A stretch of DNA of 32,000 nucleotides from Delftia acidovorans NBRC 14950 (GCF_001598795.1 NZ_BCZP01000007.1:90001-122000), one strand, 5' to 3'; shown: positions 11,122 to 28,686, counted from the first letter of the stretch. Notes: generated by a model not told the origin, from the sequence alone. Translations and numbers: made by a program.

Positions 11122-12291
11122 TCAGGCCTTGAGCAGCTCGCGCGCGATGATGAGTTTTTGCACCTCGGTCGCGCCCTCGTAGATGCGCAGCGCGCGGATC
11201 TCGCGGTACAGCGTCTCCACCGGCATGCCCGAGACCACGCCTGCCCCGCCGAACATCTGCAGCGCGCGGTCGATCACGGCCTGGGCCGATTCAGTGGCCG
11301 TCATCTTGGCCATGGCCGCCTCGCGCGTGGTGCGCGTCTTCTTCACATCGCGCATCCAGGCGGCGCGGTAGGTCAGCAGGGCCGATGCGTCGATGGCCGT
11401 GTCCATGTCGCCCAGCGCGGCCTGGGTCAGTTGCAGGTCGCCCAGGGTCTGGCCGAACATGCGGCGTGACTTGGCGCGTGCCAGGCCTTCATCCAGCGCG
11501 CGGCGCGCAAAGCCCAGTGCGGCGGCGGCCACCGAGGCGCGGAAGATGTCCAGCGTCATCATGGCCAGCTTGAAGCCCTGCCCCGGCTCGCCCAGGCGCT
11601 GCGACACGGGTATGCGGCAGTTGTCGAAGCGGATGGTGGCCAGCGGGTGCGGCGCAATCAGTTCGATGCGCTCGCCGATCGAAAAGCCCGGCGTGTCCGC
11701 ATCGACCACGAAGGCGCTGATGCCGCGCGCCCCGGGTGCCTCGCCCGTGCGGGCGAACACGCAGTAGAAGTCGGCAATGCCGCCGTTGGAGATCCAGGTC
11801 TTGGCACCGTTGAGCACATAGTGGTCGCCTTCGAGCCGCGCCTCGCAGGCCATGGCGGCCACGTCGGAGCCGGCATCGGGCTCGGACAGCGCAAAGGCCG
11901 CAATGGCCTCGCCGCGCGCCACGCGCGGCAGGTAGCGCTGGCGCAGCGCATCCGACCCCATGAGCGATATCGCACCGCTGCCCAGGCCCTGCATGGCAAA
12001 GGCGAAGTCGGCCAGGCCTTCATGGCGGGCCAGGGTCTCGCGCAGGATGCAGACCGCACGCGAGTCCACCTCGGGCAAGGCCCCGCCCCAGGCGCCGCCG
12101 GGGCCAGACGGCACGGCATAGCGCAGCCAGCCGGCCTGGCCCAGGGCCTTCACCAGTTGGCGGCAGGCCGCATCGGCATCGTGGTGGTCCACATCGCCCA
12201 GGGATTGGGCGCACCAGGCGTCGGCCTCATGCGCCAGCGTGCGGTGGGCGTCGTCGAAGAAGGGCCAGTCCAGCCAGGAGGAGTCACGCAT
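11122..12291 (-). CDS. acyl-CoA dehydrogenase
   Basis: ACAD motifs [21 protein letters not shown] and the C-terminal [16 protein letters not shown]. Start at the ATG at 12291 (MRDSSWLD...), preceded by GAAGGAAA. The track's 12306 start is a TTG overlapping the upstream gene. Confidence 0.88.
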
Positions 12292-12292
12292 T

Positions 12293-13150
12293 TCAGTTTC
12301 CTTCAAAGACAGGCTTTTGCTTGGCCACGAAGGCCTCGTAGGCGCGGTGGAAGTCGCGCGTCTGCATGCAGATGGCCTGGGCCTCGGCTTCGGCCTCGAT
12401 GGCCTCGTCCACGCCCATGTTCCATTCCTGGTGCAGCAGCTTCTTGGTTACGCCATGGGCAAAGGTGGGGCCGGCGGCCAGCTGGGCGGCCAGCGCATGG
12501 GCGGCTTCGCCGATCTGCTCGGAGCCGTGCAGGGCATTGAAGAAACCCCAGGCTGCGCCCTCCTCGGCCGTCATGGCGCGGCCCGTGTACAGCAGCTCGG
12601 AGGCGCGGCCCTGGCCGATCATGCGCGGCAGCAGCGTGCAGGCGCCCATGTCGGCACCGGCCAGGCCTACGCGGGTGAAGAGAAACGCCGTGCGCGCGGC
12701 CGGCGTGCCCAGGCGCATGTCGGCCGCCAGCGCGACCATGGCGCCCGCGCCCGCGCAGATGCCGTCCACCGCCGCCACGATGGGCTGCGGGCAGGCGCGC
12801 ATGGCCTTGATCAGATCGCCCGTCATGCGCGTGAAGTCCAGCAGCTCGGGCATGCTCATCTTGGTGAGCGGGCCGATGATCTCGTGCACATCGCCGCCCG
12901 AGCAGAAATTGCCGCCCGCGCCCGTGACCACCACGGCCTTGATGTCGGTGGCATAGACCAGGGCGCGGAACAGGTCGCGCAGCTCGGCGTAGGAGCCGAA
13001 GGTCAGCGGGTTCTTGCGCTCGGGCCGGTTCAGGGTGATGGTGCCGATCTTGCCGTCGGCCGATACCTGCCACACAAAGGTCCTGGCCTCGTAGCCGGCC
13101 AGGGGGCGCTTGTGGTGCTTCATGCTGTGTTCTTCGGGCTGGGTGCTCAT
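12293..13150 (-). CDS. enoyl-CoA hydratase/isomerase (crotonase) family protein
   Basis: [28 protein letters not shown] and [21 protein letters not shown] are crotonase oxyanion-hole signatures. An alternative start at 13123 is possible. Confidence 0.88.
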
Positions 13151-13195
13151 GGTGTCTCCATCAAGAATTCAGAAAACGGGGGGAGTGGACCGGGT

Positions 13196-13999
13196 TCAGC
13201 CGGTCATCACCTCGCCGCCGTCGACGGCAATGGACTGGCCGTTGACCGAGGCGGACGCCGGCAGGGCCAGCCAGGCCACGGTCTCGGCCACTTCCTCGGG
13301 CTGGACCAGGCGGCCCTGCGGGTTGCGTTCGGCCAGCCTGGCGCGGGCCTCATCCGCCGTCATGCCGGTCTTGTCCACGATGTTGGCCACGGCGCCGCGC
13401 ACGATGTCGGTCTCGGTATAGCCGGGGCAGACGGCATTCACCGTCACGCCCTTGCCTGCGGTCTCCAGCGCCAGCGAGCGCGTGAGGCCGATCACGCCAT
13501 GCTTGGCCGCGCAATAGGCGCTGACATAGGCATAGCCGATCAGCCCTGCCGTGCTGGCCACATTGATGATGCGGCCCCAGCGCGCAGCCAGCATGCCCGG
13601 CAGCGCGGCCTGCATGCAGTGGAAGGTGCCTGTGAGATTGACGGCCAGCATCGCCTGCCACAGTGCGGCATCGGTGCGCTCGAACTTCTGGCTGCTGGCC
13701 TGGCCTGCGTTGTTGACCAGCACCTGCACGGGGCCGAAGGCCGCCTCGGCCTGCGCGAAGGCCTGGCGCACCGAGGCCTCGTCGGCAATATCCGCCTGCA
13801 CGGACTGCACCATCTGTGCTGCCTGTGCCGTGCCGCCCAGCTCGCGCACGGCAGCCTCCAGCGCCGCACCATCGCGACCCAGCAGCGTGACCCGCGCGCC
13901 GCGGGCCAGCAGCGCCCGCGCACAGGCCAGGCCTATGCCGCGCGCCCCGCCCGTCACCAGGGCATGGCGCTCTTCAAGAAGATTCAAAGATATGGTCAT
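13196..13999 (-). CDS. SDR-family oxidoreductase (3-hydroxyacyl-CoA dehydrogenase-like)
   Basis: Start at the ATG at 13999 (MTISLNLLEERHALVTGGARGIGLA = TGxxxGIG), then NNAG and YxxxK (YCAAK). The track's 14104 GTG start adds a non-homologous Gly/Ala-rich extension. Confidence 0.88.
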   Translation of the reverse strand: MTISLNLLEERHALVTGGARGIGLACARALLARGARVTLLGRDGAALEAAVRELGGTAQAAQMVQSVQADIADEASVRQAFAQAEAAFGPVQVLVNNAGQASSQKFERTDAALWQAMLAVNLTGTFHCMQAALPGMLAARWGRIINVASTAGLIGYAYVSAYCAAKHGVIGLTRSLALETAGKGVTVNAVCPGYTETDIVRGAVANIVDKTGMTADEARARLAERNPQGRLVQPEEVAETVAWLALPASASVNGQSIAVDGGEVMTG

Positions 14000-14203
14000 T
14001 TCAATCACCCGTGGCGATGCGAGCCACCCGCAACCTATGAAACCGGCGCGCCACACAGCGAGGGACGCCGAGGAAGGGCCTGGGCCGGCCGCGCCGCCCC
14101 GCACCGACGGTATCGCCGGTGGCCCGTATGCCCCCCTCCCGCGAAGCGAGAGAGGGCGCCGTGCACACGGGGGAAGGCGCGAAGCGACTCAGGGGGTGTA
14201 GTT

Positions 14204-16552
14204 TCATTTCGCGTCCAACTGCGCCATGGCGGCGGCGCGTTCGAAGTTGGTTTCCAACTGGCGCTTGCCGGGCTGGTACTGGTTCGGCCAATCCACATCC
14301 TGCGCACCGAGTCTCGCAGCCTCGCGCAGCGTCCAGGCCGCATCTGCCAGGTGCGGGCGCGCCAGCGCGCACAGGTCGGCCCGGCCCGAGGCGATGATGG
14401 CGTTGGCATGGTCGGCCTCGAAGATGGCGCCCACGGCAATGGTCGGTATGCCGGCCTCGTTGCGCACGCGGTCGGCAAACGGCGTCTGGTACATGCGGCC
14501 GTACACCGGCTTCTGGTCGGGGCTGACCTGGCCCGAGGAGCAGTCGATCATGTCCGCGCCCGCCGCCTTGAAGCGGCGTGCGATCTCCACCGCATCGTCG
14601 GGCGTGATGCCGCCTTCCACCCAGTCATGGGCCGAGATGCGCACCGACATGGGCCGGTCCTGCGGCCAGGCTGCGCGCACCGCCTCGAACACCTCCAGCG
14701 GAAAGCGCAGGCGGTTGTCCAGGCTGCCGCCATATTCGTCATCGCGCTGGTTGGTCAGCGGCGAGATGAAGCTGGACAGCAGATAGCCGTGGGCGCAGTG
14801 CAGCTCCAGCCAGTCAAAGCCCGCTGCCGCGGCGCGCCGCGTGGCGGCCACGAAGTCCTCGCGCACGCGGTCCATGTCGGCGCGGGTCATGGCGACGGGC
14901 ACTTGCGAGAGTCCCTCGATATAGGGCAGGGCCGATGCCGACAGCAGCGGCCAGTTGCCCTGCTCCAGCGGATGGTCGATCTGCTGCCAGCCCAGCTGGG
15001 TGGAACCCTTGCGCCCCGCATGCCCCAGCTGCACGCCAATGTGCGCACCGCCCTGCGCGTGCACGAAATCGACAATGCGCCCAAAGGCCTGCGCCTGCTC
15101 GTCGTTCCACAGCCCGGGGCAGCCGGGCGTGATGCGCGCGTCGGGCGAGGTGCAGGTCATCTCCACCATCACCAGGCCCGCGCCGCCCATGGCGCGCGCG
15201 CCCAGGTGCACCAGGTGGAAGTCGCCAGGCACGCCGTCGGTGCAGGAATACATGGCCATGGGCGAGACCACGATGCGGTTCTTCAGCCGCAGGCCGCGCG
15301 CCTGGTAGGGCGTGAGCATGGGCATGGGCGGGCGGCGGCCTTCGGGCACGGTCTCGCCCGCATGCTCGGCAATCCAGCGCTCGAAGCCCTGCAGCCAGGC
15401 GGCATCGCGCAGGCGCAGGTTCTCGTGCGAGATGCGCTGCGAGCGCGTCAGCAGCGAATAGGCGAACTGCTCCGGCTCCAGGCCCGCATAGCGCTCCACG
15501 TTCTCGAACCATTCCGTGGAATTGCGCGCCGCGTTCTGGATCTTGAGCACCTCCACGCTGCGCACATCCTCGTAGTGGCGCAGGCCGGCCTCGATGCCCG
15601 CCGCAGACCGCAGGCTGCGTGCCAGCTCGATCGCATCCTCCAACGCCAGCTTGGTGCCCGAGCCAATCGAGAAATGCGCCGTGTGCGCCGCATCGCCCAT
15701 CAGTACCACGGGCACGCTGCGCGGGCCGCGCGGCGTGTCCAGCGCGTTCCAGTGCACCCAGGTATTGCAGATCACGCGCGGAAAGCGGATCCAGATGGCC
15801 GAGCCGCGCAGGTGCGTGGCATTGCTGACCAGGGCATGGCCGTCCAGCCAGGGGGCGAACAGTTTTTCGCAATAGGCAATGCCCTCTTCCTGGCTCATCT
15901 GCTCTATGCCGGCGGCCTGCCAGGTCTCCTCGGGCGTCTCCACGATGAAGGTGGACATGCCGTCTTCGTAGCGGTAGGCATGGGCCTGGAACCAGCCGTG
16001 CTCGGTCTGCACGAAGGCGAAGGTGAAGGCATCGAACACCTTGGTCGTGCCCAGCCACACGAAGCGGCAGCGGCGCTGGTCGATATCGGGCCGAAAGGTA
16101 TCGGCATAGCGCGTGCGCACCTGGCTGTTGATGCCGTCCGAGGCGATGACCAGGTCGGCGTCGTACTCGCGCGCAATCGCCTGGTCGTCCTGCACGAAGT
16201 TCTCGAACACCAGCTTCACGCCCACGTCCTCGCAGCGCGCCTGCAGGATGTTGAGCAGCTTCTTGCGGCCTATGCCGATGAAGCCATGGCCGCTGCTGCG
16301 CAGGCTGCGGCCCTTGAAGTGGATGTCGATATCGTCCCAGTGGTTGAAGGCGTCACCAATGGTGCGGGCCGATACGGGATCGGCCTCGCGCAGGTTGTCC
16401 ATGGTGGCGTCCGAGAACACCACGCCCCAGCCAAAGGTGTCGTAGGGCCGGTTGCGCTCCACCACCGTGACCTCGTTGGCGGGGTCCTGCAGCTTCATCA
16501 GCAGGCCGAAGTACAGGCCGGCGGGACCTCCACCGATACAGACGATCTTCAT
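14204..16552 (-). CDS. bifunctional flavoprotein: aryl-CoA monooxygenase fused to an Old-Yellow-Enzyme-type reductase (2-aminobenzoyl-CoA monooxygenase/reductase or salicylyl-CoA 5-hydroxylase family)
   Basis: Start [16 protein letters not shown] (FAD GxGxxG), with LVIASDG and [15 protein letters not shown] in the N-terminal hydroxylase half. The C-terminal half [15 protein letters not shown]...HAGRKGS...[20 protein letters not shown] is an FMN OYE TIM barrel. About 782 aa. Confidence 0.85.
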
Positions 16553-16739
16553 ACCGCAAACCCTTTTCTCGCAGGGCGACGGCACAGGACGCCCCAGGTT
16601 CAGAATCCAGGCCCAAGAACTTTAAGCCTGAATAGTTTAGGTTTGAAATATATAGACGAAACGCCGGCACGAACCTAGGGAGAACACGCATGAGCTCCCC
16701 GACAGCCGCTACGATGCCGGATCACCAGGAGGATCTCCC

Positions 16740-16994: not shown

Positions 16995-17737
16995 ACCAGC
17001 AAACCGAAGTCCGCGAACTGAAGCCGGGCCTCAGCCCCTTTCCCGCCGCCGCCGACATCTTCGTGGCCGACCAGCCCTGGCTGGCCGAGCACCTGCTGCC
17101 GCTGATCTCCATCGACCTGGGCCTGGTGCGGCCCGAACTGGCCGGCACCGTGGTCCACATGCTGTGCCCCGTCGAGCCCTTCGAGGGCTGCATCGGCGAT
17201 GAGACCGAAGCCCACCACAACGCCTTCACCGCCCCCAACTGGTTTGCGCTGGAGCTGACGCCCGACAACCGCTACCGCTTCCTGGGCAACGAAGGCTTCT
17301 TCCAGCGCGCGCCGCAGCATAGCGGCCAGTTCACCAAGGATGCCTTCGCCTGCGAGCACACCGACGAAATGCTGGCCAGCCACGCCAAGGCCAGTGCCTA
17401 CTACGCCGAACACGGCCGCCTGGCCAGCTACTCGCGCTACGGCAAGGGCGAGCCCATGGAGCACGACTACCTGGACAGCCTGGGCGGCGGAATCTGGTAC
17501 GGCAACTGGACCGGCCACCCGCCCATTCCCCCGGCCTTTCAGCTGGACGAAGCGGAAAACGCCGGCATGGGCGATGAACTGGAAGACGACGGCATCCGCA
17601 TCACCCGCGACGGCAAGCCCTTCTTCCACGTGGCCAACGTGGCCGGCTACAACTGGTGCGCCACGGGCGCGGACAGCATCCTGCTGTTCTACGAGCCGGA
17701 AAGCCGCACGGTGCTGTTCACCTTCGACTGGACCTGA
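16991..17737 (+). CDS. hypothetical protein (~248 aa), translationally coupled to the preceding small ORF
   Basis: The frame is open from 16802. I prefer the TTG at 16991, preceded by AGGAG (16980-16984) and overlapping the upstream stop. Acidic, Trp/Tyr-rich soluble protein ending ...SILLFYEPESRTVLFTFDWT. No family recognised. Confidence 0.6.
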   Translation: MNQQTEVRELKPGLSPFPAAADIFVADQPWLAEHLLPLISIDLGLVRPELAGTVVHMLCPVEPFEGCIGDETEAHHNAFTAPNWFALELTPDNRYRFLGNEGFFQRAPQHSGQFTKDAFACEHTDEMLASHAKASAYYAEHGRLASYSRYGKGEPMEHDYLDSLGGGIWYGNWTGHPPIPPAFQLDEAENAGMGDELEDDGIRITRDGKPFFHVANVAGYNWCATGADSILLFYEPESRTVLFTFDWT

Positions 17738-17771: not shown

Positions 17772-18158
17772 CTAGGGCGTGACGATCAGATGCGCCAGCA
17801 GCGGCCGGATGCGATCGTCCTGGTAGTAGCCACCGTACTCCGTGTAGCGCAGAAAGGCGGCATTGCAATGGTGGCAGCGCCAGAGCGTGCAGCGGTTGTA
17901 CGGGTGCCAGCCCAGGGCGATGGGGGCATCCGGCGACCACTGGTTCGTGCCCTGTGGGTGGTATTCCTCAAGCAATTCCCGTGTCTCCGGCGTGCCCAGC
18001 GCACCAACCTGCTGCAGATGCGAAGTCTTGTCCGCCCCCGACAAGGACTCCCAGCCCGGCCTCCACAGCACAGCGCAGTCCGTGCATCGCTGCTGCTCGG
18101 CCGCCGCCGCGGCGAAGGCTCTCAATTCGGGTTCAGGAAGGGGGGTTGAAGTTGTCAT
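17772..18158 (-). CDS. hypothetical Cys-rich protein (128 aa; CxxC ... CxxxxCxxC)
   Basis: Start at the ATG at 18158 (MTTSTPLPEPELRAF...). Contains CTDCAV and CTLWRCHHCNAAF, a possible zinc-ribbon-like arrangement. High GC. Same strand as the rhs array and immediately beyond its last cassette. Confidence 0.55.
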   Translation of the reverse strand: MTTSTPLPEPELRAFAAAAAEQQRCTDCAVLWRPGWESLSGADKTSHLQQVGALGTPETRELLEEYHPQGTNQWSPDAPIALGWHPYNRCTLWRCHHCNAAFLRYTEYGGYYQDDRIRPLLAHLIVTP

Positions 18159-18489
18159 GGAACGGTGCCTTGGTTTCCATGGATTGTCCGGCAGGTTTGG
18201 GGGCGGGTTTGGCAGGGGTTCATATTCCGTGGCAAAGCACTGCATCGGGTGCTGACCCGCCTTCGCATCAAAGTACTGGCCCTGGAATCTCAGATGCTCT
18301 TAGACCTCTAGTGGTGATACGCGTGCTGGCAACAGGTGCTGTGCTGGTCTCATATATGGCGGGCCCGGCCTGCTCACCCAGAATGGCCTAGGCACTGGGC
18401 GACAGGCCGCAGTCCATGGGTCTGGCACAGGTGTATTTGATATCTTCTAAATTTCCGAGGATTCTCATCGTTGAGCAACTTATTTTAAT

Positions 18490-18984
18490 TTAATCTTGCC
18501 GCTGCGAATTTCCAGCCTCATATTGATATTTAGTAAATTCCTCCAAAACAAAAATATTATCAGAACTTATCAATACACCCATCTCCATCAAATAGCAAGA
18601 TAATTTAGGGTAGAGAATAATACCACATTCATGAGAATTTATATTCCTTTTCTGTGTCATGGTTTTTTTAACAATGGATTCTTTTTCTTTATTTCTTCTT
18701 AAGTCAAGAAGGCTTAACGCATTTAATTCATTATCAACCCCTGACTTGCATAGCATTGTTGCAAACCCCAGGTCGTCATCATAATTTAAGTAACTTAATT
18801 TGCAAAAATCTGGAATATAAATTTCATAATTATTGATATTAACAATAGAATGTTCGTGAATATTATTATTTTTCGATTTAAATTCAATCAACTGAATACA
18901 TCCAGAGATAAAAAACATTGTCGAGAGCAATAAAATTGCTGCATGAAGTATTTTCTTTATCTTTTTAGAGTGAATATTAATCAT
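18490..18984 (-). CDS. putative lipoprotein, candidate immunity protein of orphan cassette B
   Basis: The ATG at 18984 gives MINIHSKKIKKILHAAILLLSTMFFISGC, a lipoprotein signal with an ISGC lipobox. Very AT-rich. It lies 10 nt downstream of the orphan toxin stop, the position of an rhs immunity gene. Confidence 0.65.
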   Translation of the reverse strand: MINIHSKKIKKILHAAILLLSTMFFISGCIQLIEFKSKNNNIHEHSIVNINNYEIYIPDFCKLSYLNYDDDLGFATMLCKSGVDNELNALSLLDLRRNKEKESIVKKTMTQKRNINSHECGIILYPKLSCYLMEMGVLISSDNIFVLEEFTKYQYEAGNSQRQD

Positions 18985-18994
18985 AGCACCAGAT

Positions 18995-19725
18995 TTATTT
19001 ATGGATTGATTTTTCAAGCGCTCCTCCGGTTAGCGTTGCGGTTACCTTCATGCCACTTTTATATGCTTCACGCATAGCTTCAATAGCTTCTTTTTCGGAT
19101 TCCTCCGCTTGACCATTCATTACCTCAAGATCTTGAGCGGATTTAGGACAATTGGGAGGTGTTGGCACAGCAATACATTTGTATAAATCGACTTTTGCCT
19201 GATTGGCTCTTTCCGTCTTTTGATGTGCATCTGCCACATCTTTCCCAAAATTTGCAGATTTCCTTGCTTTATTAGCTGTACTTGCAGCGGCACCAACACC
19301 TCCTTATCCTTGCAACCCCAGTGAATCTATCCACGAGGGCGGATCTGCTGGGTAGTCATAGTGACTAGTGCCTCCATTCCATCCAATCGAATCCTGATTC
19401 ACATAACTCCCCACCACCGGATCGTAATACCGATGACGGTTGTAATACAGCCCCATTTCCCTGTCATGGTGCTCCCCGGCAGCCGGATCGCCTGGTGGAT
19501 GCCCTGCGGGTTGTATTCCTGCAGCACATTGCCCGAGGGAACCAGCTTTGCAGCCCAGGCCACTTGGCCGGTCTGGTCCGTCAGGGCAATTGGTATGTCC
19601 AGATGGTCGCAGTGGTAGTGGAAGATGGTGATGTGGGCGTGCTGTTCTCTTTCCTGTTTTTGCAGTTTAGGCCTGCATGCCGCTGAGCAGGCCTGTGGTG
19701 CTGTCGGCGGCCTCATTGGCTCGGT
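18995..19725 (-). pseudogene. orphan rhs C-terminal fragment B (core 3' end plus ~100-aa toxin tail), disrupted
   Basis: Minus-strand translation matches the main Rhs core end (ADSTT..LL.GMQA / KLQKQEREQHAHITIFHYHCDHL...ALTDQTGQVAWAAKL...NVLQEYNPQGIHQAIRLPG / HHDREMGLYYNRHRYYDPVVGSYVNQD). It is broken by a 1-nt insertion near 19667-19671, a 1-nt deletion near 19474 and an in-frame TAA at 19304-19306. The junction motif is degenerate (PPSWIDSLGL). Confidence 0.8.
19375..19725 (-). repeat. rhs core 3'-end repeat, copy 3 (orphan B, most diverged)
   Basis: Aligns to the same core segment with scattered substitutions and two single-base indels. Confidence 0.85.
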
Positions 19726-20071
19726 ACCTGGAGAGGGCTTTGTGCGTCTGCGATGGAGTTGGGTTACTGTTCCATCCTGACCATACCCACCCGCGCAACT
19801 TCGCTGTTTCGGACATATCCTCAGCCTATGGAAGCTCTGTATAAATCAAACTTCCGAAAAGCAGGCTGTTAAAAATCAATGACTTTCAATGTCTACAAAA
19901 TAGAAATCGTGCTTTGTGCAGAGGTTCCCTAAGTAAATACCCAGCCTAGCCCCAAAGCACAGTCAATTAATTAGAATAAATACCCTACTTGCGTTAATAG
20001 CAATAAATACACCGAATTCAAAGATATAGATAATCCGCAACAAACCAATCAATGATCTCCTAGCAAGAATT

Positions 20072-20650
20072 CTATTGATAATCAATTTCTACTAAGCAGA
20101 TGTAAGATTGCGATTTATATGGAGTTCTCATGGTCATCCTTGCATGTGTAGGCTTACTTGAGAAAATAGCATTTCTCCCATCAATATCCCTGGAATAGAG
20201 AATTATTTCATCTTTGTTTAAAAGCATATGAATTTGAACATTTTCCAAATTCCTCGATATTTTCTGCCCAATCTTTTTATCAGGGCTATTTATATAAATC
20301 GTTCCACTATTTTTTATTTCTTCCAACAAAACCGATAGCGAATTTTCTTGCCTCCCCTTTGATTCATACTCATTTCTATGTCCGACACCAAATGCATATT
20401 TTACAGGAAGAAAATTACCATTCTTTATTAACCCAGGTTCAACCATCCAAGAATAGTTGATTTCATTTTTTTCATTACTTCTATCATTAATAATCCATAT
20501 TTTTTGATCTTTATCAATGATTTGAAAACTGGCTACAAATTTCTTTGAATCTACGCCAACCAAACATTCTGGCTCTCGATTTTCAATATCTTTGGCGTAC
20601 GATGAAGAAAAATTCAAACAAATAGCAAATACATAAAATAAATATTTCAT
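20072..20650 (-). CDS. secreted (Sec signal) protein, candidate immunity protein of orphan cassette A
   Basis: MKYLFYVFAICLNFSSSYA-KD... is a classical signal peptide. 192 aa, very AT-rich. ATGA overlap with the stop of the orphan toxin ORF (20647-20650). Confidence 0.7.
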   Translation of the reverse strand: MKYLFYVFAICLNFSSSYAKDIENREPECLVGVDSKKFVASFQIIDKDQKIWIINDRSNEKNEINYSWMVEPGLIKNGNFLPVKYAFGVGHRNEYESKGRQENSLSVLLEEIKNSGTIYINSPDKKIGQKISRNLENVQIHMLLNKDEIILYSRDIDGRNAIFSSKPTHARMTMRTPYKSQSYICLVEIDYQ

Positions 20651-21087
20651 CGTCGAGTGCCTCTTGTTCTAGTCCTGATTTTTTGCATCATTTCCAATAT
20701 ATCGTCCGTATCTGCTGTAGGAGCGGTGCCTGGCCCGGTGGGGTCGCTCTTCAGTCGGGATTTATTGCATTTTTCGCCAACTGGCAAAGGCATTGATTTA
20801 GGAGTGGAAGGAATACTATCGTGGCTTCTTGTCAGTGGATTTGAGGGATAGGTGAAGAAATTTACCCCACCCATCAACCCGATCGGATCCTGATTCACAT
20901 AAATCCCCACCACCGGATCGTAATACCGATGCCGGTTGTAATACAGCCCCGTTTCCCTGTCATGGTGCTGCCCCGGCAGCCGGATCGCCTGGTGCAGGCC
21001 CTGCGGGTTGTACTCCTGCAGCACATTGCCCCAGGGGTCCAGCTTTACGGCCCAGGCCACCTGGCCGGTCTGGTCCGTCAGGGCCAT
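20647..21087 (-). CDS. orphan rhs C-terminal fragment A (core 3' end plus ~65-aa tail); open only from an internal Met
   Basis: MALTDQTGQVAWAVKLDPWGNVLQEYNPQGLHQAIRLPGQHHDRETGLYYNRHRYYDPVVGIYVNQDPIGLMGG is near-identical to the main Rhs core end. Homology continues upstream to about 21250 in another frame (SAQAILGEQAEGATRLLSGMQAKLQEQERQQRIAI) because of a 2-nt deletion near 21117. An ATG at 21277 abuts the stop of the upstream immunity gene. Confidence 0.7.
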   Translation of the reverse strand: MALTDQTGQVAWAVKLDPWGNVLQEYNPQGLHQAIRLPGQHHDRETGLYYNRHRYYDPVVGIYVNQDPIGLMGGVNFFTYPSNPLTRSHDSIPSTPKSMPLPVGEKCNKSRLKSDPTGPGTAPTADTDDILEMMQKIRTRTRGTRR

Positions 21088-21250
21088 TGGCGTGCCCAGT
21101 GGGTCGCAGTGGTAGTGGGATGGCGATGCGCTGTTGCCGCTCCTGTTCCTGCAGTTTTGCCTGCATGCCGCTCAGTAGGCGTGTGGCCCCCTCGGCCTGT
21201 TCGCCTAGGATCGCCTGGGCGCTGGGCTGCAGGCTGTGCGCATGGCGCTC
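20866..21250 (-). repeat. rhs core 3'-end repeat, copy 2 (orphan A)
   Basis: Direct visual alignment to 22213-22600. Long identical runs such as ccggatcgtaataccgatgccggttgtaatacagccccgtttccctgtcatggtgctgccccggcagccggatcgcctggtgcaggccctgcgggttgtactcctgcagcacattgccccaggggtccagctt. Confidence 0.9.
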
Positions 21251-21277
21251 AGCATAAAATCGCCCCATCTGGCACAT

Positions 21278-21652
21278 TCAAATTGGTTTATTTTTTATTT
21301 CAAATATGACAAAAATCATAGACGAAATGATGCCAGCAAAAAAACCAAATATCAGATAATAAAAATCGAGAAGATCAATTGCCAAGGATAAATTGAAAAA
21401 TAATTTCTTAATTGTGATGACTGCAAGTGCTCCAATAGTTGCAGAGATACAGAAATAGAAAAATATGCCGTATTTGTTTTTTAAATGCCCAAGAAATAAT
21501 TGAAACAAAAAATTAAGAGGCAGCGAAATTAGAAAAACGAATAAGAAAAAATAAACATAAAGCGATTTATAATCTTTATCCGTCATTAACCCCGTAAAGA
21601 GAAATCCAATAATTACAGATGAAACGATGCTTGGCTGTATTAACTTAATCAT
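21278..21652 (-). CDS. small 4-TM integral membrane protein, cognate immunity candidate for the main Rhs toxin
   Basis: 124 aa with four hydrophobic helices (SIVSSVIIGFLFTGL, LYVYFFLFVFLISLPLNFLF, IFFYFCISATIGALAVITI, FYYLIFGFFAGIISSMIFVIF). ATGA overlap with the rhs stop (21649-21652). Extremely AT-rich. Confidence 0.75.
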   Translation of the reverse strand: MIKLIQPSIVSSVIIGFLFTGLMTDKDYKSLYVYFFLFVFLISLPLNFLFQLFLGHLKNKYGIFFYFCISATIGALAVITIKKLFFNLSLAIDLLDFYYLIFGFFAGIISSMIFVIFEIKNKPI

Positions 21653-24600
21653 TTGCAGCTTTCCGCATATTCGAAGACATTTTTATCAACTTGGCCCCAA
21701 AGTGTGTCTGCAAGTGCACTGTTTATTCCACCCATAGGACCAACACCTTCCCCGAACGTATGCACTGTCACCTCAGTTGCGCTTTCTGAGACCCAACGGC
21801 GTACTATTCCTGGGTAGAGTAGGTGCGAATTTTCCGTAACGTTAACGACCATTGTACGATCTGAATTAACTACATGGCTCACGGGGCCCACAGGAATTGC
21901 GAAACCGCGCTGGCCGTTTTGTATAGGCTCCCCTTTTGCACCTGGAGCTGGATAACGCATTAGTCCTTCGGATACGTTTTTAAGAGTGCAGCCACTTGTA
22001 CTCTTCTTGCAAGAATTCCTCGTGTTGTAACTGTGAAAGTCGTTGTTGCCTTCATCAAAAAGCATTACTCCGTTACTGTCTTCGCCTAGCAATCCGGGGT
22101 AGCTCTTTCTATTGTTGCTTAAATAGCCCCGTTGCGCCATTGTTCCTGGCTCAAGACCAAGCGGGTCGGCCAAATTAACCGGCGAATTTCTAACATATCC
22201 GTAGGGGTTAGTCCCACCCATCAAACCAATCGGATCCTGATTGATATAACTCCCAACCACCGGATCGTAATACCGATGCCGGTTGTAATACAGCCCCGTT
22301 TCCCTGTCATGGTGCTGCCCCGGCAGCCGGATCGCCTGGTGCAGGCCCTGCGGGTTGTACTCCTGCAGCACATTGCCCCAGGGGTCCAGCTTCGCGGCCC
22401 AGGCCACTTGGCCGGTCTGGTCCGTCAGCGCCATGGGCGTGCCCAGGTGGTCGCAGTGGTAGTGGTGGATGGCGATGCGGGCGTGCTGTTCTTTTTCCTG
22501 TTCCTGCAGCTTTGCCTGCATGCCGTTGAGTAGGCGTGTAGTGCTGTCTGCCTGTTCGCCCAGCATGGCCTGGGCACTGGGCGGCAGGCCATGGTCCAGG
22601 GTATGGCGCAGGTGGCGGGCGGCGTCTTGTTGCATGTCGCGCGGCATGGCGCTGAGCATGGTTTGCATGAGGGCCAGGGCCGGCGTGTGGTTGGGGTCGT
22701 CCTGGTCGGGCAAGCCTGCGGTGATGGCCTGCACCAGCAGGTGGGGCTCGCTTTGCGGGTCGCCGCTGGCCGTGGTGCTCAGGCGCACCAGGGGGGTGAA
22801 GCTGCCCGGTTCGTAGATGGTGTGCTCTATGTGGCGCGCGTCGTCGCCATGCTGCAGGCGTTCGGTGTGGATGAGGCGGTCGCCGTCCCAGCCGTAGTAG
22901 TGGGTGTGGGTGGATTCTGTGGAGTCCGCGCTTTCGACCTGCTGCTTGAGCCTGCGGCCCAGGGCGTCGTAGGTGTAGCGGCTGTGGTGGCGCAGTTGCT
23001 CGGCGTTGCCCTGGATCTGGCTGCTGCGCACCGCTATGAGCTGGTGGGCTCCGTCGTAGTGCAGTTGCTGCTGGCTGTGGTCTGCCTGCATTTGCGCGAT
23101 GCGGTTGCCGCAGGGGTCGTAGCGCCAGACGCAGTCTTCGGTGAAGCCGATGCGGTTGTCTTCCCAGCGCTGCACGGGGCCTTGCCGCTGGCCTGCAAGG
23201 TGGGCCAGGCCCATGAGGTTGAAGTCGGTGTGCCGCCAGTGGGCGTGGACCTGGGCGGCCCAGTTGTCCTGGGTGTTCGTCTGGCACGGTGCACCGGGTG
23301 CTGGCAGGCGGTTGCCTGCAGGGTCGATCTGCCAGCGGGTGGTGGTCTGGGGGTCCTGGCTGTCGGTGGCCGCTCTGAGGCGCCCGGCGCTGTCGTAGCC
23401 GTAGCGCAGCAGTTGTGCGGCCTGGCCCGGGGCGCCGGCCTGTTCGATGGCAACGAGCTGGCCCAGGCTGTCGCAGTGGTAGCGACGGCCGAGGATCTGG
23501 CCTATGAGGGGCTGGACCAGGTGGTCCCTGCCTTCCGTGCTTTGCAGGCCCGTGGTGCCAAGGGCCGTGAGGCGGCCCAGGCTGTCCCATTGGCGTTGCA
23601 CCTGCAGGGGGTTGTGTGCGTCTGCTGCAGAGGTGGGTGAGTGCAGGCTGCGGCGGACTTCGCGGTGCAGGTTGTCGCGCTCGAAGTCGATGAGGCTGGC
23701 TCCGTTGAGCTGCAGTCCGTGCACATGGCCTGAGCCGTAGGTGAGCCAGGCGATCTCCCCCAGGCCTTGCAGCTGGCTGTGCTGGCGTGCGCCCAGCGCG
23801 TCCAGGCTGTGGGCGATGCGGTGTTCGTATTCGATCTGCTCTGCGCCCCCGTTGCCGCCCCCGTCCTTGCCTGGGCGGTACAGCTGCTGCACTTCTGCGG
23901 TGATGCGGCCCAGGGCGTCGCGCTCCAGTGCTATGCGGCTTTGCAGTTGGATGGTGTTCTCTGCGGTGTTCTCGCCGGTGTGCTGCCATACGCTGGCCGC
24001 CGTGAGGCGCCCGGCGGCATCCCATTCGTAGCGGTGGGTTTGTGCGGGCGCATGGGGCGTGGCGGGCAGCTGGCGTTCGGCGAGGCGCCCGCCTTCGTCC
24101 CAGCGGTAGTGGCTGCTGCTTTGCTGTGCGGCGTTGCCGTCCGTGGCTTCGAGGAGCTGGCCTGCCGCGTCCCAGCGGTAGCGCTGCAGCCGTTGGTCAA
24201 ACCCTTCTTCCTGCACGAGCCGGTCCAGTGCGTCCCAGGCAAAGCGGCTTTGCGCTCCGTTCTCGTTGACGAGGCGCAGGAGGCGGCCGGCGCTGTCGTA
24301 TTCGAAGGCCAGGGTGAGGCCGCCATGTGTTCGCTGGACCAGCCTGCCCCAGAGGTCGTAACGCAGGTGGATGCTGGGGTCGGCGGTCTGGGTTTCGCTG
24401 GAGGTGCCGGCAGGCTGGGCCGGATCGATGCGCGTGAGGTGGCCTGCACTGTCGTAGTGGTAGCGCTCGATCTGGCCGTTGGGCAGTTCGCTGGCCACGA
24501 TGCGGCCCTGGCCATCGCGCTGGTGGCGTTGGCGCTGGCCCAGGGCGTTGTCCACTTCGATGAGCGCGCCCCAGCGGTCGTAGTGGTAGTGCGTGCTGTG

Positions 24601-26250
24601 GCCCGAGCAGTCGGTGTAGCTGAGCAGTTGGCCCGCGTCGCTCCAGGCCAGCTGTTTGCTGCCACCCTGGGCGTCTTCGATGCGCCGGGGGCTGTCGCAG
24701 GTGAGCGGCGCTTCCTGGGGGTCGGGGTAGTGGTAGCGCTCGGTGCTGCCATCGGCCTGGGTGATCTGGATGAGACGGCCCCAGGCGTCGTATTGGTAGC
24801 CGGTGGTGGCGCCTGCCGTGTCGGTCGCGCTGAGCAGGCGGCCGGTGGCTTCGTCGTGTTCCTGTTGGGTGCTGCGCCCGTCGGGCAGTTGCACGCCGAG
24901 GAGCCGGCCCTGGCCGTCGCGCCTGAGGTGGACGCTGCGCCCCAGCGGGTCGGTGCGCGAAGCCAGCCGGCCGAAGCTGTCGTAGGCCTGCAGCCAGCGG
25001 CTGCCATCGGCCTTGTGGTGGGCAACGAGGCGCGACAGGCCCGCCTCGCCTTCGAAGTAGTAGGTCTCGATGCGATCCAGGCTGTCGCTGACGCGGGTGG
25101 CGGCGCGCGGCTGGCCGTCGGGGTCCGGGGGCTGGGCGAGGTAGTCGAAGCGGTAGGACAGGCCTTCCTGGTTGCTGTGCTCGATGACGCGGGCACCGGG
25201 CTGGGCGCTCTCGTAGCGGTAGCGGTGCCAGGGGCCGCTGGCATGGCGGTGGGCGCTGATGCGGTGGTGGTCCCATTCGAATTCGCGCACGAGCTGGCCT
25301 GCGCGGTCGTGGACGGTGATGAGGTCGCCTGCGTTGCTGTAGCCGTAGCGCACGAGGGCGATGGGGGTGGACAGGGGATGCAACGGGTCCTGCACCAGAT
25401 CCACGCCTGTGACCCGCCAGCCGTCGTCGGTTCCCCACAAACCCAGCGCATCCCTGCCGCCATGGATGCGCTGGTGCAGCAGCCGGTAGCGGCGGCCTGT
25501 GCCGTCGCTCAGCGAGACCAGGCGCCCTGCGGGCACAGCCTCTTTGCTGGCACTGTGGCCGGCCTCGGGCGTGGTGCCGTCGCTGTAGTGGTAGAGCTGG
25601 CGGCGCCCGAAGCGGTCGATCTGGGCCATGAGGAGCCAGGGACCGTCGACAGGTCCACCGGGCGCAGGACCAAAGCCCCAGAGTGTGTCGCCATCGCCGC
25701 TGACCGCGAGGATGGCTTGCGGGTTGCGCACCAGCGCCTGCTCCACATGGCTCCAGCGTGGGTTCGCCGCCCAGGGGGCGGTACCGCCGTCCGGCTCCGT
25801 GCTGCCGCCGCGCAGCAGCCAGATGTCTTCGCTGGCACTGTGCAGCTGGCCGCCCGGCACCAGAGGCTGGTCGAAGGTGATGACGCGGCCGCTGGCATCC
25901 AGCAGCAAGGTGGCCTCTTCCTGCAGGCGGATGCTGAGCTCCTGCAGCAGGTGCCAGCCATGGCCCAGCAGGCCGCAGGCAGCGCCGTGCTCGGGGTTGA
26001 CGTAGCTGCTGTACTGGCGCTGCCAGGCCACAGGCAGCGCAGCCGATGGCAGGGCGAAGTCCAGGTCTTGTGCGCCCAACAGGACCTTGGCGCCCAGCTG
26101 GGGGTTGACGGGGGAACTGACGGTGATGCCACCTGGGCAGACGGAGCAGGCCAGGCCCCCCTGGCTGCCGATGAGCACGGTGAGCGAGCCGGTGACGATC
26201 TTGCCCTTGACGACGCTGTCGGTGATACGGGCTGCGGGTTGGCCACTCAT
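21649..26250 (-). CDS. rhs: T6SS PAAR-domain Rhs effector (1533 aa) with an unrecognised C-terminal toxin domain
   Basis: N-terminus MSGQPAARITDSV...LIGS is a PAAR motif. Dozens of YD repeats (YRYDLWGRL, FEYDSAGRL, YQYDAWGRL, YHYDRWGAL, YGYDSAGRL). Core end HHYHCDHLGTP...DPWGNV...LPGQHHDRETGLYYNRHRYYDPVVGSYINQDPIG, then the PxxxxDPxGL demarcation PVNLADPLGL (about 22153-22182). The 167-aa tail is at 21652-22152. AGGAG lies 10 nt upstream of the ATG. Confidence 0.95.
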   Translation of the reverse strand: MSGQPAARITDSVVKGKIVTGSLTVLIGSQGGLACSVCPGGITVSSPVNPQLGAKVLLGAQDLDFALPSAALPVAWQRQYSSYVNPEHGAACGLLGHGWHLLQELSIRLQEEATLLLDASGRVITFDQPLVPGGQLHSASEDIWLLRGGSTEPDGGTAPWAANPRWSHVEQALVRNPQAILAVSGDGDTLWGFGPAPGGPVDGPWLLMAQIDRFGRRQLYHYSDGTTPEAGHSASKEAVPAGRLVSLSDGTGRRYRLLHQRIHGGRDALGLWGTDDGWRVTGVDLVQDPLHPLSTPIALVRYGYSNAGDLITVHDRAGQLVREFEWDHHRISAHRHASGPWHRYRYESAQPGARVIEHSNQEGLSYRFDYLAQPPDPDGQPRAATRVSDSLDRIETYYFEGEAGLSRLVAHHKADGSRWLQAYDSFGRLASRTDPLGRSVHLRRDGQGRLLGVQLPDGRSTQQEHDEATGRLLSATDTAGATTGYQYDAWGRLIQITQADGSTERYHYPDPQEAPLTCDSPRRIEDAQGGSKQLAWSDAGQLLSYTDCSGHSTHYHYDRWGALIEVDNALGQRQRHQRDGQGRIVASELPNGQIERYHYDSAGHLTRIDPAQPAGTSSETQTADPSIHLRYDLWGRLVQRTHGGLTLAFEYDSAGRLLRLVNENGAQSRFAWDALDRLVQEEGFDQRLQRYRWDAAGQLLEATDGNAAQQSSSHYRWDEGGRLAERQLPATPHAPAQTHRYEWDAAGRLTAASVWQHTGENTAENTIQLQSRIALERDALGRITAEVQQLYRPGKDGGGNGGAEQIEYEHRIAHSLDALGARQHSQLQGLGEIAWLTYGSGHVHGLQLNGASLIDFERDNLHREVRRSLHSPTSAADAHNPLQVQRQWDSLGRLTALGTTGLQSTEGRDHLVQPLIGQILGRRYHCDSLGQLVAIEQAGAPGQAAQLLRYGYDSAGRLRAATDSQDPQTTTRWQIDPAGNRLPAPGAPCQTNTQDNWAAQVHAHWRHTDFNLMGLAHLAGQRQGPVQRWEDNRIGFTEDCVWRYDPCGNRIAQMQADHSQQQLHYDGAHQLIAVRSSQIQGNAEQLRHHSRYTYDALGRRLKQQVESADSTESTHTHYYGWDGDRLIHTERLQHGDDARHIEHTIYEPGSFTPLVRLSTTASGDPQSEPHLLVQAITAGLPDQDDPNHTPALALMQTMLSAMPRDMQQDAARHLRHTLDHGLPPSAQAMLGEQADSTTRLLNGMQAKLQEQEKEQHARIAIHHYHCDHLGTPMALTDQTGQVAWAAKLDPWGNVLQEYNPQGLHQAIRLPGQHHDRETGLYYNRHRYYDPVVGSYINQDPIGLMGGTNPYGYVRNSPVNLADPLGLEPGTMAQRGYLSNNRKSYPGLLGEDSNGVMLFDEGNNDFHSYNTRNSCKKSTSGCTLKNVSEGLMRYPAPGAKGEPIQNGQRGFAIPVGPVSHVVNSDRTMVVNVTENSHLLYPGIVRRWVSESATEVTVHTFGEGVGPMGGINSALADTLWGQVDKNVFEYAESCK
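22213..22600 (-). repeat. rhs core 3'-end repeat, copy 1 (within the main rhs gene)
   Basis: About 390 bp encoding PSAQAMLGEQADSTTRLLNGMQAKLQEQ...YYDPVVGSYINQDPIGLMGG. It is repeated with high identity at 20866-21250 and, more diverged, at about 19375-19725. Confidence 0.9.
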
Positions 26251-26328: not shown

Positions 26329-28686
26329 TCAGCAGTTGAGCCGGTCCGTGGGCGAGAGAATCTGGATGTCGCCGGGCGTGATGCGGATGGTGCTTTCGCC
26401 GCAGGTCAGCAGGATTTCCTGCTGGGCTTCGAGCCGGATCTTGGCGGCGTTGAGCTCAATGCTTTGCCCATCCATGGTGAGCTGGGAGGCCTTGCCGCCT
26501 CCACCGCTGCCGCTGTCACCACCGCCACCGCCACCGCCACCGGGCGCCGTGATGTTCATGGCCATGCCGCCTCCCGCGCCACCACCGCTGCCGCCACCAC
26601 CTCCGCCACCACCGCCCACGGTCAGCGAGTACTGCGAGCCCACTTCCGTGCTTTGCTTGCTGCCGACCTTGACCTGGCGCTCCTGCCCCACGGTGAGGTT
26701 CTGGCTCATGCCGACCGTGGTCTGCATGGCCACACCGATGTTCTCCATGTAGTTGACGCCGATGTTCATCATCTTCATCACACCCACGTTCTGCATGTAG
26801 GCCATGCCTATGGTCTGGGTCTTGAGCAGGCCGACCGTGACGTGCCAGTTCTGGCCTATCTTGTCGGTCTCGGTCTTGCCGATGGTCTTGCTGCGGTTCT
26901 TGCCGATGGAGATGTTCTCGTCGATGCCGACGTCTTCATTGCGGTTGTCGCCGATGCTGATCTTCTCGTTGTGGTCCACCCGCTCCGTGCGGTTGTTGTG
27001 CACGGTGATGGTCTCGTCGCGGTCCACGGTCTCCGTGCGGTCGCGGTGGATGACGTTGGTTTCGTCACGGTCCACCGTCTTGCGCCGGTCATTGCCCACC
27101 CATTTGTCCTCGTCGTTCTCGACTTCGGTGAGCTGGTCCTTTTGCGCGTGCAGCCACAGCTGTTCGGCGCCGGCCTTGTCCTCGAAGCGGATGGCGTTGG
27201 CGTCGCCCGGGCCGTTCTTCATGCCCGCGCCTGCGGCACCGCCCTTGCTCGATCTGGTCTTGATGCCCGATTGCGTGGCGTTGGCCGGCAGCGCCCAGGG
27301 CGGCATGTTGGCCGCGTTGTAGACGCAGCCCGTGACGATGGGGTAGTCCGGGTCGCCGTTGAGGAAGTCCACCACCACCTCGTGCCCTATGCGCGGGATG
27401 GAGATGGCGCCAAAGCCCGGGCCGGCCCAGTTGGTGGCCACGCGGATCCAGCAGCTGGAGTTCTCGTTCATGCCGCCCAGCCGGTCCCAGTGGAACTGCA
27501 CCTTGATGCGGCCGTATTCGTCGGTCCAGATTTCTTCTCCGGCCGGGCCCACGACGACGGCAGTCTGCGGGCCGGTGGTGCGCGGCTTGGGCGTGGTGCG
27601 CGCGGGCGTGTAGGCAAGACTCGTGGGCTGAGCCTGCAACTCGTAGCGCTGGAAGGAGCCGTCTTCCGCGGCGCTGCCCTTGGCGCCCGGAGCCACGGCA
27701 CTGACGCGGGGGTTCTCCTTCAAGTGGTAGCTCAGGCCCGTGATCAGGTACTGCTGGTTCTGGTCGCCGCGCGGGTAGTTGTAGAGGCTGAAGGTGTAGC
27801 CCGTGGCCAACGCCCGGTGGCAGGACTGGCCCCGCACCCGGCTTTGGCCCGTGAGGCTTTCCTTCAGGCGCACGCGGATGTAGTCCTCACCGTCGCTCAG
27901 CTGGGTGTAGCCGCCCGGCCATTCGTAGATTTCGTGGCCGTCATGGGCGTGGCCCGGTGGGTCGCGCCGCAGGTGGGTGAGGTCGGCCCGGGGTTTCTTG
28001 AAGTCGTAGTCGTCGCTGTAATGGCGGCCCGATTTGATTTCCTGCTCCAGCTGCCAGGCGTGGATGTTTTCCTGATCGCCTGCGGCGGCTTTTTCCGGGG
28101 GATAAAAGGGAATGGAGGCGCCCCCGGGCAATACGCTGTGCGAGGCAATGATGTCGTCGCACAGCACCAGGGTGTGCTGGCCTGAGGCATGCTCGAAGAA
28201 GTAGTAAATGCCTTCGTGCTCCATCAATCGCGATACGAAGTCGCAATCGCTTTCGTTGTATTGAACGCAGTAGTCCCAGCTGCGATACGCACGCGTGAGT
28301 TTCTTTTGCAGGGGATGGCCATAGACGCCCAATACCTGCTCGATGATGTCGGGCACGGTCTGGTTCTGGAAGATGCGAAAGTCGCTCTTGCGCGTGGCCA
28401 GCCACAGCCAGGGGCTCAGGCGCGCCTTGTAGGCGTAGTGGCGGTGGTCCTGGCCCTGCATGCCGAAGCGGGTGACGATGCCGTCAATGAAGCGCCTGCC
28501 GCCGCCCTGGGTTTCTATTTCTATGGTGGCGTTTTTGCCCAATAGGGCCTTGGGATCGATGCTTTCGCTTTCGCTGAGCATTTCCACATCGAGGCTGAAG
28601 AGCTGGCTGATGTTTTCCTGGCCGCGCAATTCACGGAAATGCAGCTGCTCGCCCAATGGCGTGTGTATGGTGACTCGGCGTGTCAT
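26329..28686 (-). CDS. vgrG: T6SS spike protein VgrG
   Basis: gp27-like N-terminus (FRIFQNQTVPDIIEQVL, WDYCVQYNESDCDFVSRLMEHEGIYYFFEH). gp5-like OB region (WAGPGFGAISIPRIGHEVVVDFLNGDPDYPIVTGCVYN). Beta-helix octapeptide-like repeats (DRDETNVIHRDRTETVDRDETITVHNNRTERVDHNEKISIGDNRNEDVGIDENISIG). Gly-rich linker and short C-terminal domain. Confidence 0.95.
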   Translation of the reverse strand: MTRRVTIHTPLGEQLHFRELRGQENISQLFSLDVEMLSESESIDPKALLGKNATIEIETQGGGRRFIDGIVTRFGMQGQDHRHYAYKARLSPWLWLATRKSDFRIFQNQTVPDIIEQVLGVYGHPLQKKLTRAYRSWDYCVQYNESDCDFVSRLMEHEGIYYFFEHASGQHTLVLCDDIIASHSVLPGGASIPFYPPEKAAAGDQENIHAWQLEQEIKSGRHYSDDYDFKKPRADLTHLRRDPPGHAHDGHEIYEWPGGYTQLSDGEDYIRVRLKESLTGQSRVRGQSCHRALATGYTFSLYNYPRGDQNQQYLITGLSYHLKENPRVSAVAPGAKGSAAEDGSFQRYELQAQPTSLAYTPARTTPKPRTTGPQTAVVVGPAGEEIWTDEYGRIKVQFHWDRLGGMNENSSCWIRVATNWAGPGFGAISIPRIGHEVVVDFLNGDPDYPIVTGCVYNAANMPPWALPANATQSGIKTRSSKGGAAGAGMKNGPGDANAIRFEDKAGAEQLWLHAQKDQLTEVENDEDKWVGNDRRKTVDRDETNVIHRDRTETVDRDETITVHNNRTERVDHNEKISIGDNRNEDVGIDENISIGKNRSKTIGKTETDKIGQNWHVTVGLLKTQTIGMAYMQNVGVMKMMNIGVNYMENIGVAMQTTVGMSQNLTVGQERQVKVGSKQSTEVGSQYSLTVGGGGGGGGGSGGGAGGGMAMNITAPGGGGGGGGDSGSGGGGKASQLTMDGQSIELNAAKIRLEAQQEILLTCGESTIRITPGDIQILSPTDRLNC
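26494..26620 (-). repeat. GGN-codon low-complexity tract encoding the VgrG poly-Gly linker
   Basis: The plus strand reads gcc/acc-rich (accgccaccgccaccgccacc, ccgccaccacctccgccaccaccgcc). It encodes GGGGGGGGGSGGGAGGG and GGGGGGGGDSGSGGGG flanking MAMNITAP. Confidence 0.8.

Follow-up and report, generated by a model that had tools for sequence, protein, structure and literature searches.

What purpose is served by a row of toxin cassettes lying behind a full-length rhs gene: is it a store from which recombination could still arm that gene with another toxin, or a record of toxins already displaced? The question is raised by a locus of Delftia acidovorans NBRC 14950, contained in a stretch of 32,000 nucleotides (NZ_BCZP01000007.1:90001-122000; hereafter, the window) in which a full-length rhs gene is trailed by copies of the 3′ end of its own conserved core, each followed by a different C-terminal toxin tail (CT) and a presumed immunity gene (Imm). 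Coordinates are positions in the window, and all features of the array lie on the minus strand. An earlier note, made from the sequence alone, had taken the copies for a toxin-switching array. Our analysis leads us to consider it likely that the locus is instead an rhs gene linked to a type VI secretion system (T6SS) with an archive of toxin/immunity cassettes displaced from it ("C-terminal displacement"), the surviving role of which is mostly immunity. The array is read in this way because both orphan toxins are broken, because a switch would cost the main gene its immunity partner, and because there is no clear sign of recent exchange between the main gene and the orphans.

A vgrG-linked rhs gene with orphan cassettes

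The full-length rhs gene (21649..26250) encodes a 1533-amino-acid protein with a DUF6531 domain, YD/RHS repeats, and an RHS-associated core. The repeats match PF05593 (RHS_repeat; E = 2.2e-66, in 7 stretches) and TIGR01643 (9.4e-54), the core matches PF03527 (5.2e-19) and, at residues 1289-1366, TIGR03696, and the conserved part ends in NQDPIGLMGG (residues 1337-1346), with DPLGL at residue 1362. The N terminus, MSGQPAARITD...VLIGSQGG, is PAAR-like, with no PAAR family detected in Pfam at E ≤ 0.01. Upstream, across a gap of 78 nt, lies vgrG (26329..28686; 785 residues; Phage_GPD, 1.4e-109, Gp5_trimer_C, and Phage_base_V), encoding the spike on which a T6SS would deliver the Rhs toxin; a gene for the T6SS sheath, tssC (TssC, PF05943; 4.1e-137), is located elsewhere in the genome, on contig C9. 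The repeats, the core with its DPxGL motif, the linkage to vgrG, and the T6SS gene together identify the product as a predicted T6SS-associated Rhs/YD-repeat polymorphic toxin.

The 3′ end of the core occurs three times in the same orientation, in agreement with the earlier note, whose coordinates were good to about 15 bp. Copy 1 (22213..22589) lies within the main rhs gene; copy 2 (20866..21234) is the core fragment of orphan 1, its frame broken by 6-bp and 2-bp deletions upstream of a conserved ATG at 21087; and copy 3 (19366..19708) is the core fragment of orphan 2, with an in-frame TAA and three indels. The pairwise alignment that had been suggested as a check was carried out locally and gave 337 of 377 identical columns (89.4%) between the main copy and orphan 1 (22589..22213 against 21234..20866), 302 of 345 (87.5%, with 3 small indels) between the main copy and orphan 2 (22551..22209 against 19708..19366), and 86.5% over 326 columns between the two orphans. 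The repeats are spaced 1347 bp and 1497 bp apart. Copy 2 had been called a good substrate for recombination, and its last 253 nt are indeed 95% identical to the main core without a gap, including an exact run of 137 nt (22392..22256 = 21045..20909); the longest exact runs are 32 nt between the main copy and orphan 2 and 28 nt between the orphans. Searched against the whole 6.63-Mb genome, the repeats match with E values of 1.7e-141 and 1.6e-116, and the two other rhs loci of the genome are only 74-78% identical in this segment, so the likeness is far beyond chance.

Every copy terminates at ...NQDPIG(L/W)xGG and is followed by a distinct tail and a small open reading frame (ORF). The cargo has a G+C content of 27-45%, against 67-70% for the core and the genome, so that the description of distinct AT-rich tails, each with its own immunity gene, holds, and the cargo segments show no similarity when compared with each other. 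Same-orientation core repeats that lack the N-terminal delivery region, each with a distinct CT and immunity ORF, mark the locus as a probable orphan rhs-CT/rhsI array; that such an array lies downstream of a full-length, vgrG-linked gene is thus supported. The parts of cassettes M (that of the main gene), A, and B are each single copy in the genome, Imm-M included. None of the three CTs or three immunity proteins has a credible Pfam or NCBIfam family, even at lenient thresholds.

Broken toxins and conserved immunity genes

Neither orphan toxin is intact, whereas the immunity genes of both orphans are full length and conserved, with a lower ratio of nonsynonymous to synonymous substitution rates (0.24 each) than the toxin remnants (0.44-0.47). 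In cassette A, what follows the LMGG of orphan 1 is a CT-A remnant of 72 amino acids plus stop (20647..20865), the form taken by a 156-residue CT after an in-frame deletion: in DNA alignments with L020 (D. deserti), L021, L039, and L048, the window lacks exactly 252 bp, or 84 codons. The missing part includes a second DPxGL-like motif (GIDPTGL) and the whole aromatic- and Cys-rich region. At L039, where the cassette A cargo is 98.9% identical to that of the window at the nucleotide level and the parts flanking the deletion are 100% identical as protein, the 252 bp are present; the deleted allele recurs in L026, L041, and L045-47. The 2-bp deletion breaks the orphan-1 core frame; an open frame resumes at a conserved Met codon (ATG 21087) and runs for 146 amino acids, ending in an ATGA overlap with Imm-A. 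Imm-A (20072..20650) encodes 192 amino acids with a signal peptide, and its homologues are equal to it in length and 85-98% identical. An exhaustive HMMER search with the 72-residue remnant returned three weak matches, none of them a full-length Rhs, and intact CT-A matched only its own genome when searched against 400 genomes of the family.

In cassette B, the CT-B pseudogene (18995..19365) is interrupted by a nonsense TAA (19306..19304) following ...WIDSLGLQG, with the other 102 codons readable. Intact alleles in L032, from a metagenome-assembled genome (MAG) labelled Delftia acidovorans, and in L033 have CAA (Gln) at this codon and an uninterrupted ORF of 139 amino acids, relative to which orphan B is also frameshifted. 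The TAA lies 3′ of all homology to the main gene, so no crossover with the main gene could bypass it. Imm-B (18490..18984, from an ATG at 18984) is a predicted lipoprotein of 164 amino acids with the lipobox ...FISGC; its homologues are 78-98% identical, and an 81% homologue in L032 is equal in length. Intact CT-B, searched against all 76 species of the genus, matched its own genome and otherwise gave marginal matches only, and a scan of the genome collection with an Imm-B alignment yielded no confirmed locus.

The main gene, by comparison, carries a tail of 187 amino acids, CT-M, that is 75% identical, end to end, to the C termini of full-length Rhs proteins from Paracidovorax oryzae and Acidovorax sacchari and 52% identical to that of a full-length Rhs of Burkholderia sola. 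On these comparisons CT-M looks sound and is a genuine predicted toxin domain, one that other genera also carry on full-length Rhs proteins. Imm-M (21278..21652), a multiple-transmembrane protein of 124 amino acids, starts in an ATGA overlap with the end of rhs and is the candidate immunity partner of CT-M.

The CT-M family also terminates two proteins of other architecture (P0019/P0016): a 2524-amino-acid protein of SpvB plus FG-GAP/VCBS type and an Rhs with a phosphoesterase domain (PF04185), the latter annotated as a phospholipase C by its source; the same tail is therefore found on different delivery scaffolds. On a conspecific metagenome contig (L041:3339-8204), the end of CT-M and Imm-M are both frameshifted, which reflects either a true inactivation of both members of the main pair or a fault of assembly. 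Elsewhere, cassette M occurs in complementary pieces, its first ~437 nt at L043:4256-4976 and its positions 445-978 in L045-47 (L045:7384-7918). The pieces break at nearly one point within the toxin, which hints at a recombination-prone site or a two-part toxin.

A fourth remnant of the repeat, overlooked in the earlier note, closes the array. This composite scar (18249..18433) consists of 66 nt (18433..18368) that are 83% identical to the 5′ edge of the main-type repeat (22614..22550), extending the homology of copy 1 to 22614, and ~50 nt of a second rhs-core family (18298..18249) that reads HLRFQGQYFD and is 84% identical to copies in a Delftia deserti array. The scar is common to L034, L036, and L040, and synteny with relatives restarts past it, at ~18207. 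In the simplest reading, it would be the record of a further, non-homologous truncation. The main-equivalent coordinates of the scar and orphan 2 abut (22550/22551), and we considered whether the two might be halves of a circularly permuted unit; this was rejected because weak orphan-2 homology continues upstream and because the scar is itself followed by a remnant of a different core family. Right after the scar lies a high-G+C ORF of 132 amino acids (MTTSTPLPEPELRAF...; 17772-18170, minus strand) that matches no family. L032 and L036 keep it too, where their arrays end distally, and the window copy is 5 codons shorter than theirs (E to stop). It may be what is left of the oldest cassette, otherwise erased: its immunity gene.

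Past crossovers between core repeats

Both orphan repeats are chimeras, with a single breakpoint each and with parent repeats that lie apart in related loci. At the 49 sites that differ between the core-X and core-A repeats of L041, the orphan-1 repeat is X-type at 30 of 33 and then A-type at 16 of 16, which places the breakpoint between 21056 and 21051; its 5′ portion corresponds to the core found after cassette M, and its 3′ portion to the core that cassette A natively carries. The orphan-2 repeat, at 65 informative sites, matches the "post-A" core of L038 and L043 at 30 of 31 and then the "pre-B" type (from L043, confirmed with L032) at 28 of 34, with the breakpoint between 19442 and 19402. 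Two single-breakpoint chimeras imply that the array was once longer and reached its present short form through no fewer than two unequal repeat-to-repeat crossovers. Most simply, two such events, homologous and between orphan repeats, would have trimmed it.

Recent exchange between the main gene and orphan 1 is a different matter. There is no convincing signal of gene conversion between them, the two sharing a single unique variant (GGCCTGCACC). The 3′ 253 nt of the core are 88-96% identical among copies from several species; the main and orphan-1 copies are no more alike than copies from different species, and there is therefore no clear sign of such exchange.

Array architecture in related loci

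The surroundings of the cassettes in relatives were traced via immunity-gene searches. A metagenome scan with an Imm-A alignment returned 11 loci, 7 of which keep the distal flank (L038, L039, L041-L043, L045, and L046); the large flank blocks of those seven are 96.6-98.5% identical to the window, an identity that marks them as conspecific with it. The labelled sequences nearest to the window come from a MAG under the name Delftia acidovorans (flank, ~97%) and from Delftia deserti. Module maps of 14 related loci, derived from the Imm-A and Imm-B searches, show flanks of 96-98% identity around varied cassette content.

The earlier note had proposed looking for other arrangements in related strains, and this bore fruit: at least 6 array architectures occupy the locus, between conserved flanks, among same-species strains and metagenome loci. 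In the window, as in L034 and L040, the order is Rhs, cassette M, core, deleted A, core, broken B, scar, and flank. L041 has Rhs, M, core-X, cassette X, core-A, and A before the further stretch leading to the flank; L038 and L039 have an intact A, a core, another cassette, and a core on the way to the flank; L032 has B and then three more cassettes; and L043 and L044 contain at least 9 cassettes, including M, a partial M, a B variant, and A. The main-position CT varies as well. In L045-47, the main gene carries a different tail (CT-Y, with Imm-Y), followed by the 3′ part of cassette M, so that the window's main cassette is there displaced and truncated, and then by a core, A, and a further stretch to the flank. 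Together with the chimeric repeats, these variable architectures indicate that recombination within the conserved core has probably exchanged and deleted cassettes.

The repeats reach beyond the species. At the syntenic locus of a sister species (G005), with flanks ~90% identical, there are at least 5 further core-repeat copies, and none of the cargo there matches that of the window. In a 20-kb stretch of D. deserti L020 (GCA_042682365.1), rhs core fragments number at least 11; they fall into two families (76% and 84-95% identical to the window repeat), are interleaved with small low-G+C ORFs, and form a very long mixed orphan array. In another metagenome (ERZ929229; L022:530-1015), an N-terminal fragment of vgrG is fused to a frameshifted 3′ piece of an rhs core; behind it stand several immunity-like genes in a row, one of them a 58% Imm-A homologue. 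Nearly all of vgrG-rhs has apparently been deleted here, leaving an island of immunity genes only.

Weighing an archive against a working switch

In the model we propose, vgrG-rhs would be the expressed gene, carrying CT-M and guarded by the membrane immunity protein Imm-M. Cassettes A and B would be older and displaced downstream, each with 340-370 bp of core 3′ end, and the scar would mark a further cassette. The conserved core segment would be a homology arm that travels with each cassette: copies would cross over unequally by homologous recombination, presumably RecA dependent, and so remove or reshuffle cassettes, incoming cassettes would recombine at the same core site, and the repeats would still offer landing pads for later exchange. 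The retained immunity genes may protect the cell against neighbors that still deploy intact CT-A or CT-B.

The earlier note had gone further and seen a live switch; the crossover it calls for, mediated by RecA, would remove 1347 or 2844 bp and give Rhs another, functional toxin. Deletion of intervening DNA by crossover between repeats stands as history, in the chimeras and the varied architectures; as a switch usable in this genome it fails, and we regard it as unlikely. The homology of orphan 1 is adequate, and since the best of it lies 3′ of the 2-bp deletion, a fusion would stay in frame; repeat-to-repeat crossovers have happened in this lineage, the main-position CT differs between strains, and Salmonella provides a precedent (PMC3967940). 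However, a functional switch of the Salmonella LT2 type requires an intact orphan CT, and neither CT-A nor CT-B is one. A crossover with orphan 1 would attach only the 72-amino-acid remnant, which is missing 84 codons including the DPxGL-like motif, and a crossover with orphan 2, for which the long high-identity tract present in orphan 1 gives way to exact matches of at most 32 nt, would yield a reading frame closed by the TAA, ~20 codons past the core and outside the homology. Either event would also delete the single-copy Imm-M, a loss for which the Salmonella model needed prior duplication (PMC3967940). The present outcome would be a toxin-less or crippled Rhs that has lost Imm-M and gained no new working weapon. 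Moreover, no fusion of the main core to CT-A or CT-B occurs in the module-mapped metagenome loci, and the likeness of the main and orphan-1 copies does not exceed that of copies from different species. The supposition that the repeats are chance similarity or an assembly artefact has nothing behind it other than that the genome is a 91-contig draft. It is refuted by E values of 1e-116 to 1e-141 and by the same arrangement, at 98.5-99% identity, in the independent metagenome assemblies L034 and L040, which shows that the array is not an artefact of assembly; we give it practically no weight.

A further alternative is that the orphans are expressed alone from internal starts, either as intracellular toxin-antitoxin-like modules or with the toxin remnant as a translated leader coupled to the immunity gene through ATGA. 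The open 146-amino-acid ORF running from ATG 21087 into the Imm-A start speaks for this, as do a frame into Imm-A that is open in 14 of 14 loci examined, three CT-A indels (252, 12, and 3 nt) that are all multiples of three, and internal expression documented in Salmonella (PMC7043789). Intrinsic-terminator-like hairpins are likewise absent between 17700 and 22700, against 5.5 ± 3 expected from shuffled sequences, a lack that would also allow transcription to run on from rhs through the immunity genes. On the other side, no Shine-Dalgarno-like sequence precedes ATG 21087, promoter-like matches are at chance level, orphan B is interrupted by stops, and L034 and L040 are frameshifted at the core/CT junction, so that the Met-initiated ORF of orphan 1 is not conserved. 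We judge independent expression to be improbable, about as much so as the live switch. Marginally better placed, and still doubtful, is a broader conjecture in which the dead-toxin ORFs would act as leaders driving immunity via the ATGA overlap and the core repeat plus cassette would form a RecA-driven, integron-like system. A leader role would explain both the in-frame CT-A indels and the wide occurrence of the deleted allele. If it is true, selection keeps the leader remnants of displaced toxins; if the integron-like part is true, crossovers should cluster within ~200 nt of the 3′ end of the core and be readable as chimeric repeats in natural populations.

Several points weigh against the archive of displaced cassettes that we favor. 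The ratios of nonsynonymous to synonymous substitution rates, 0.24 for Imm-A (against D. deserti) and 0.24 for Imm-B compared with 0.44-0.47 for the CT-A and CT-B remnants, come from single pairs of short sequences. The CT-A remnant could retain some function, since the deleted allele is widespread and in frame, and a loss of fold through the deletion cannot be demonstrated, because the AlphaFold2 model of intact CT-A, built from a 3-sequence alignment, is uninformative (mean predicted local distance difference test score, 38.9). The CT and immunity proteins match no known family, and their roles as toxins and antidotes are predicted from sequence and gene order. The direction of the chimera events, deletion rather than insertion, depends on parsimony. 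Finally, intact CT-A and CT-B were seen only in orphan or contig-edge positions, none of them on a demonstrably full-length Rhs, and the threat that would keep Imm-A and Imm-B useful is for that reason a presumed one.

Comparison with known systems

The architecture of orphan rhs-CT/rhsI modules was described by Poole et al. 2011 (PMC3150448), and the locus conforms to it: a full-length, vgrG-linked rhs and its own immunity gene are followed by truncated fragments whose core sequence reaches as far as DPxGL and which lead into CTs that all differ, each with its small immunity ORF; there are stops in the retained core, and the cargo is of foreign composition. It differs from the described modules in its host lineage, Comamonadaceae, in its uncharacterized CT and immunity families, and in that both orphan repeats can be shown, via conspecific loci, to be crossover chimeras.

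In Salmonella Typhimurium LT2 (Koskiniemi et al. 2014; PMC3967940), too, the main gene and an orphan share the 3′ end of the core as a direct repeat; homologous recombination across it would join the CT of the orphan to the main gene, with loss of the main immunity gene. The recombination model proposed for Salmonella needs a prior duplication, which avoids that loss (PMC3967940). The LT2 repeat is 522 bp at 95% identity and its orphan toxin and immunity protein are functional (PMC3967940), whereas the best tract in the window is 253 nt at 95% (137 nt exact), of similar quality to that of Salmonella but shorter, and both orphan toxins are defective.

Displacement and re-recruitment of C termini are described in a passage of PMC5727410 that cites Jackson et al. 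2009. Similar in character are the orphan toxin/immunity arrays of Snodgrassella alvi, a symbiont of the bee gut (Steele et al. 2017; PMC5727410), in which toxins and cores recombine rapidly between strains and immunity genes outlive pseudogenized toxins. Many S. alvi orphans are transcribed and toxic, however, while both orphans in the window are broken, and the long arrays of S. alvi have their counterpart in the conspecific metagenome loci with at least 9 cassettes rather than in the short array of the window. In the T6SS loci of Vibrio cholerae, sequential displacement is similarly reported to have left immunity genes downstream of the active effector (Kirchberger et al. 2017; PMC5361080), where they plausibly protect against former or neighboring toxin types; those arrays are not Rhs based and have no repeated core as a homology arm.

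The locus of D. acidovorans is a clear natural example of Rhs locus diversification. It involves no mechanism that is new beyond C-terminal displacement and the retention of orphan immunity genes; its main points of interest are the sharply mapped chimeric repeats, in which conspecific metagenome loci place one crossover within 6 nt and the other within ~40 nt, both in the repeated core, and three uncharacterized toxin/immunity families. In this strain it is immunity, not weaponry, that outlasts displacement. A tidy repeat array should not, on its own, be read from a genome as a usable toxin reservoir.

Neighboring genes

Between the array and an Oxidored_FMN gene lies a convergent conserved pair (~16711-17735, plus strand), also present in L032 and L036, that encodes a small DUF7661 protein and an acidic protein of ~248 amino acids without assigned function. 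A plus-strand ORF of 1479 amino acids (12239..16678) that has the look of a second rhs gene was rejected as a spurious high-G+C antisense frame over minus-strand genes. The real minus-strand genes beneath it include a FAD_binding_3/Oxidored_FMN fusion (14204-16585).

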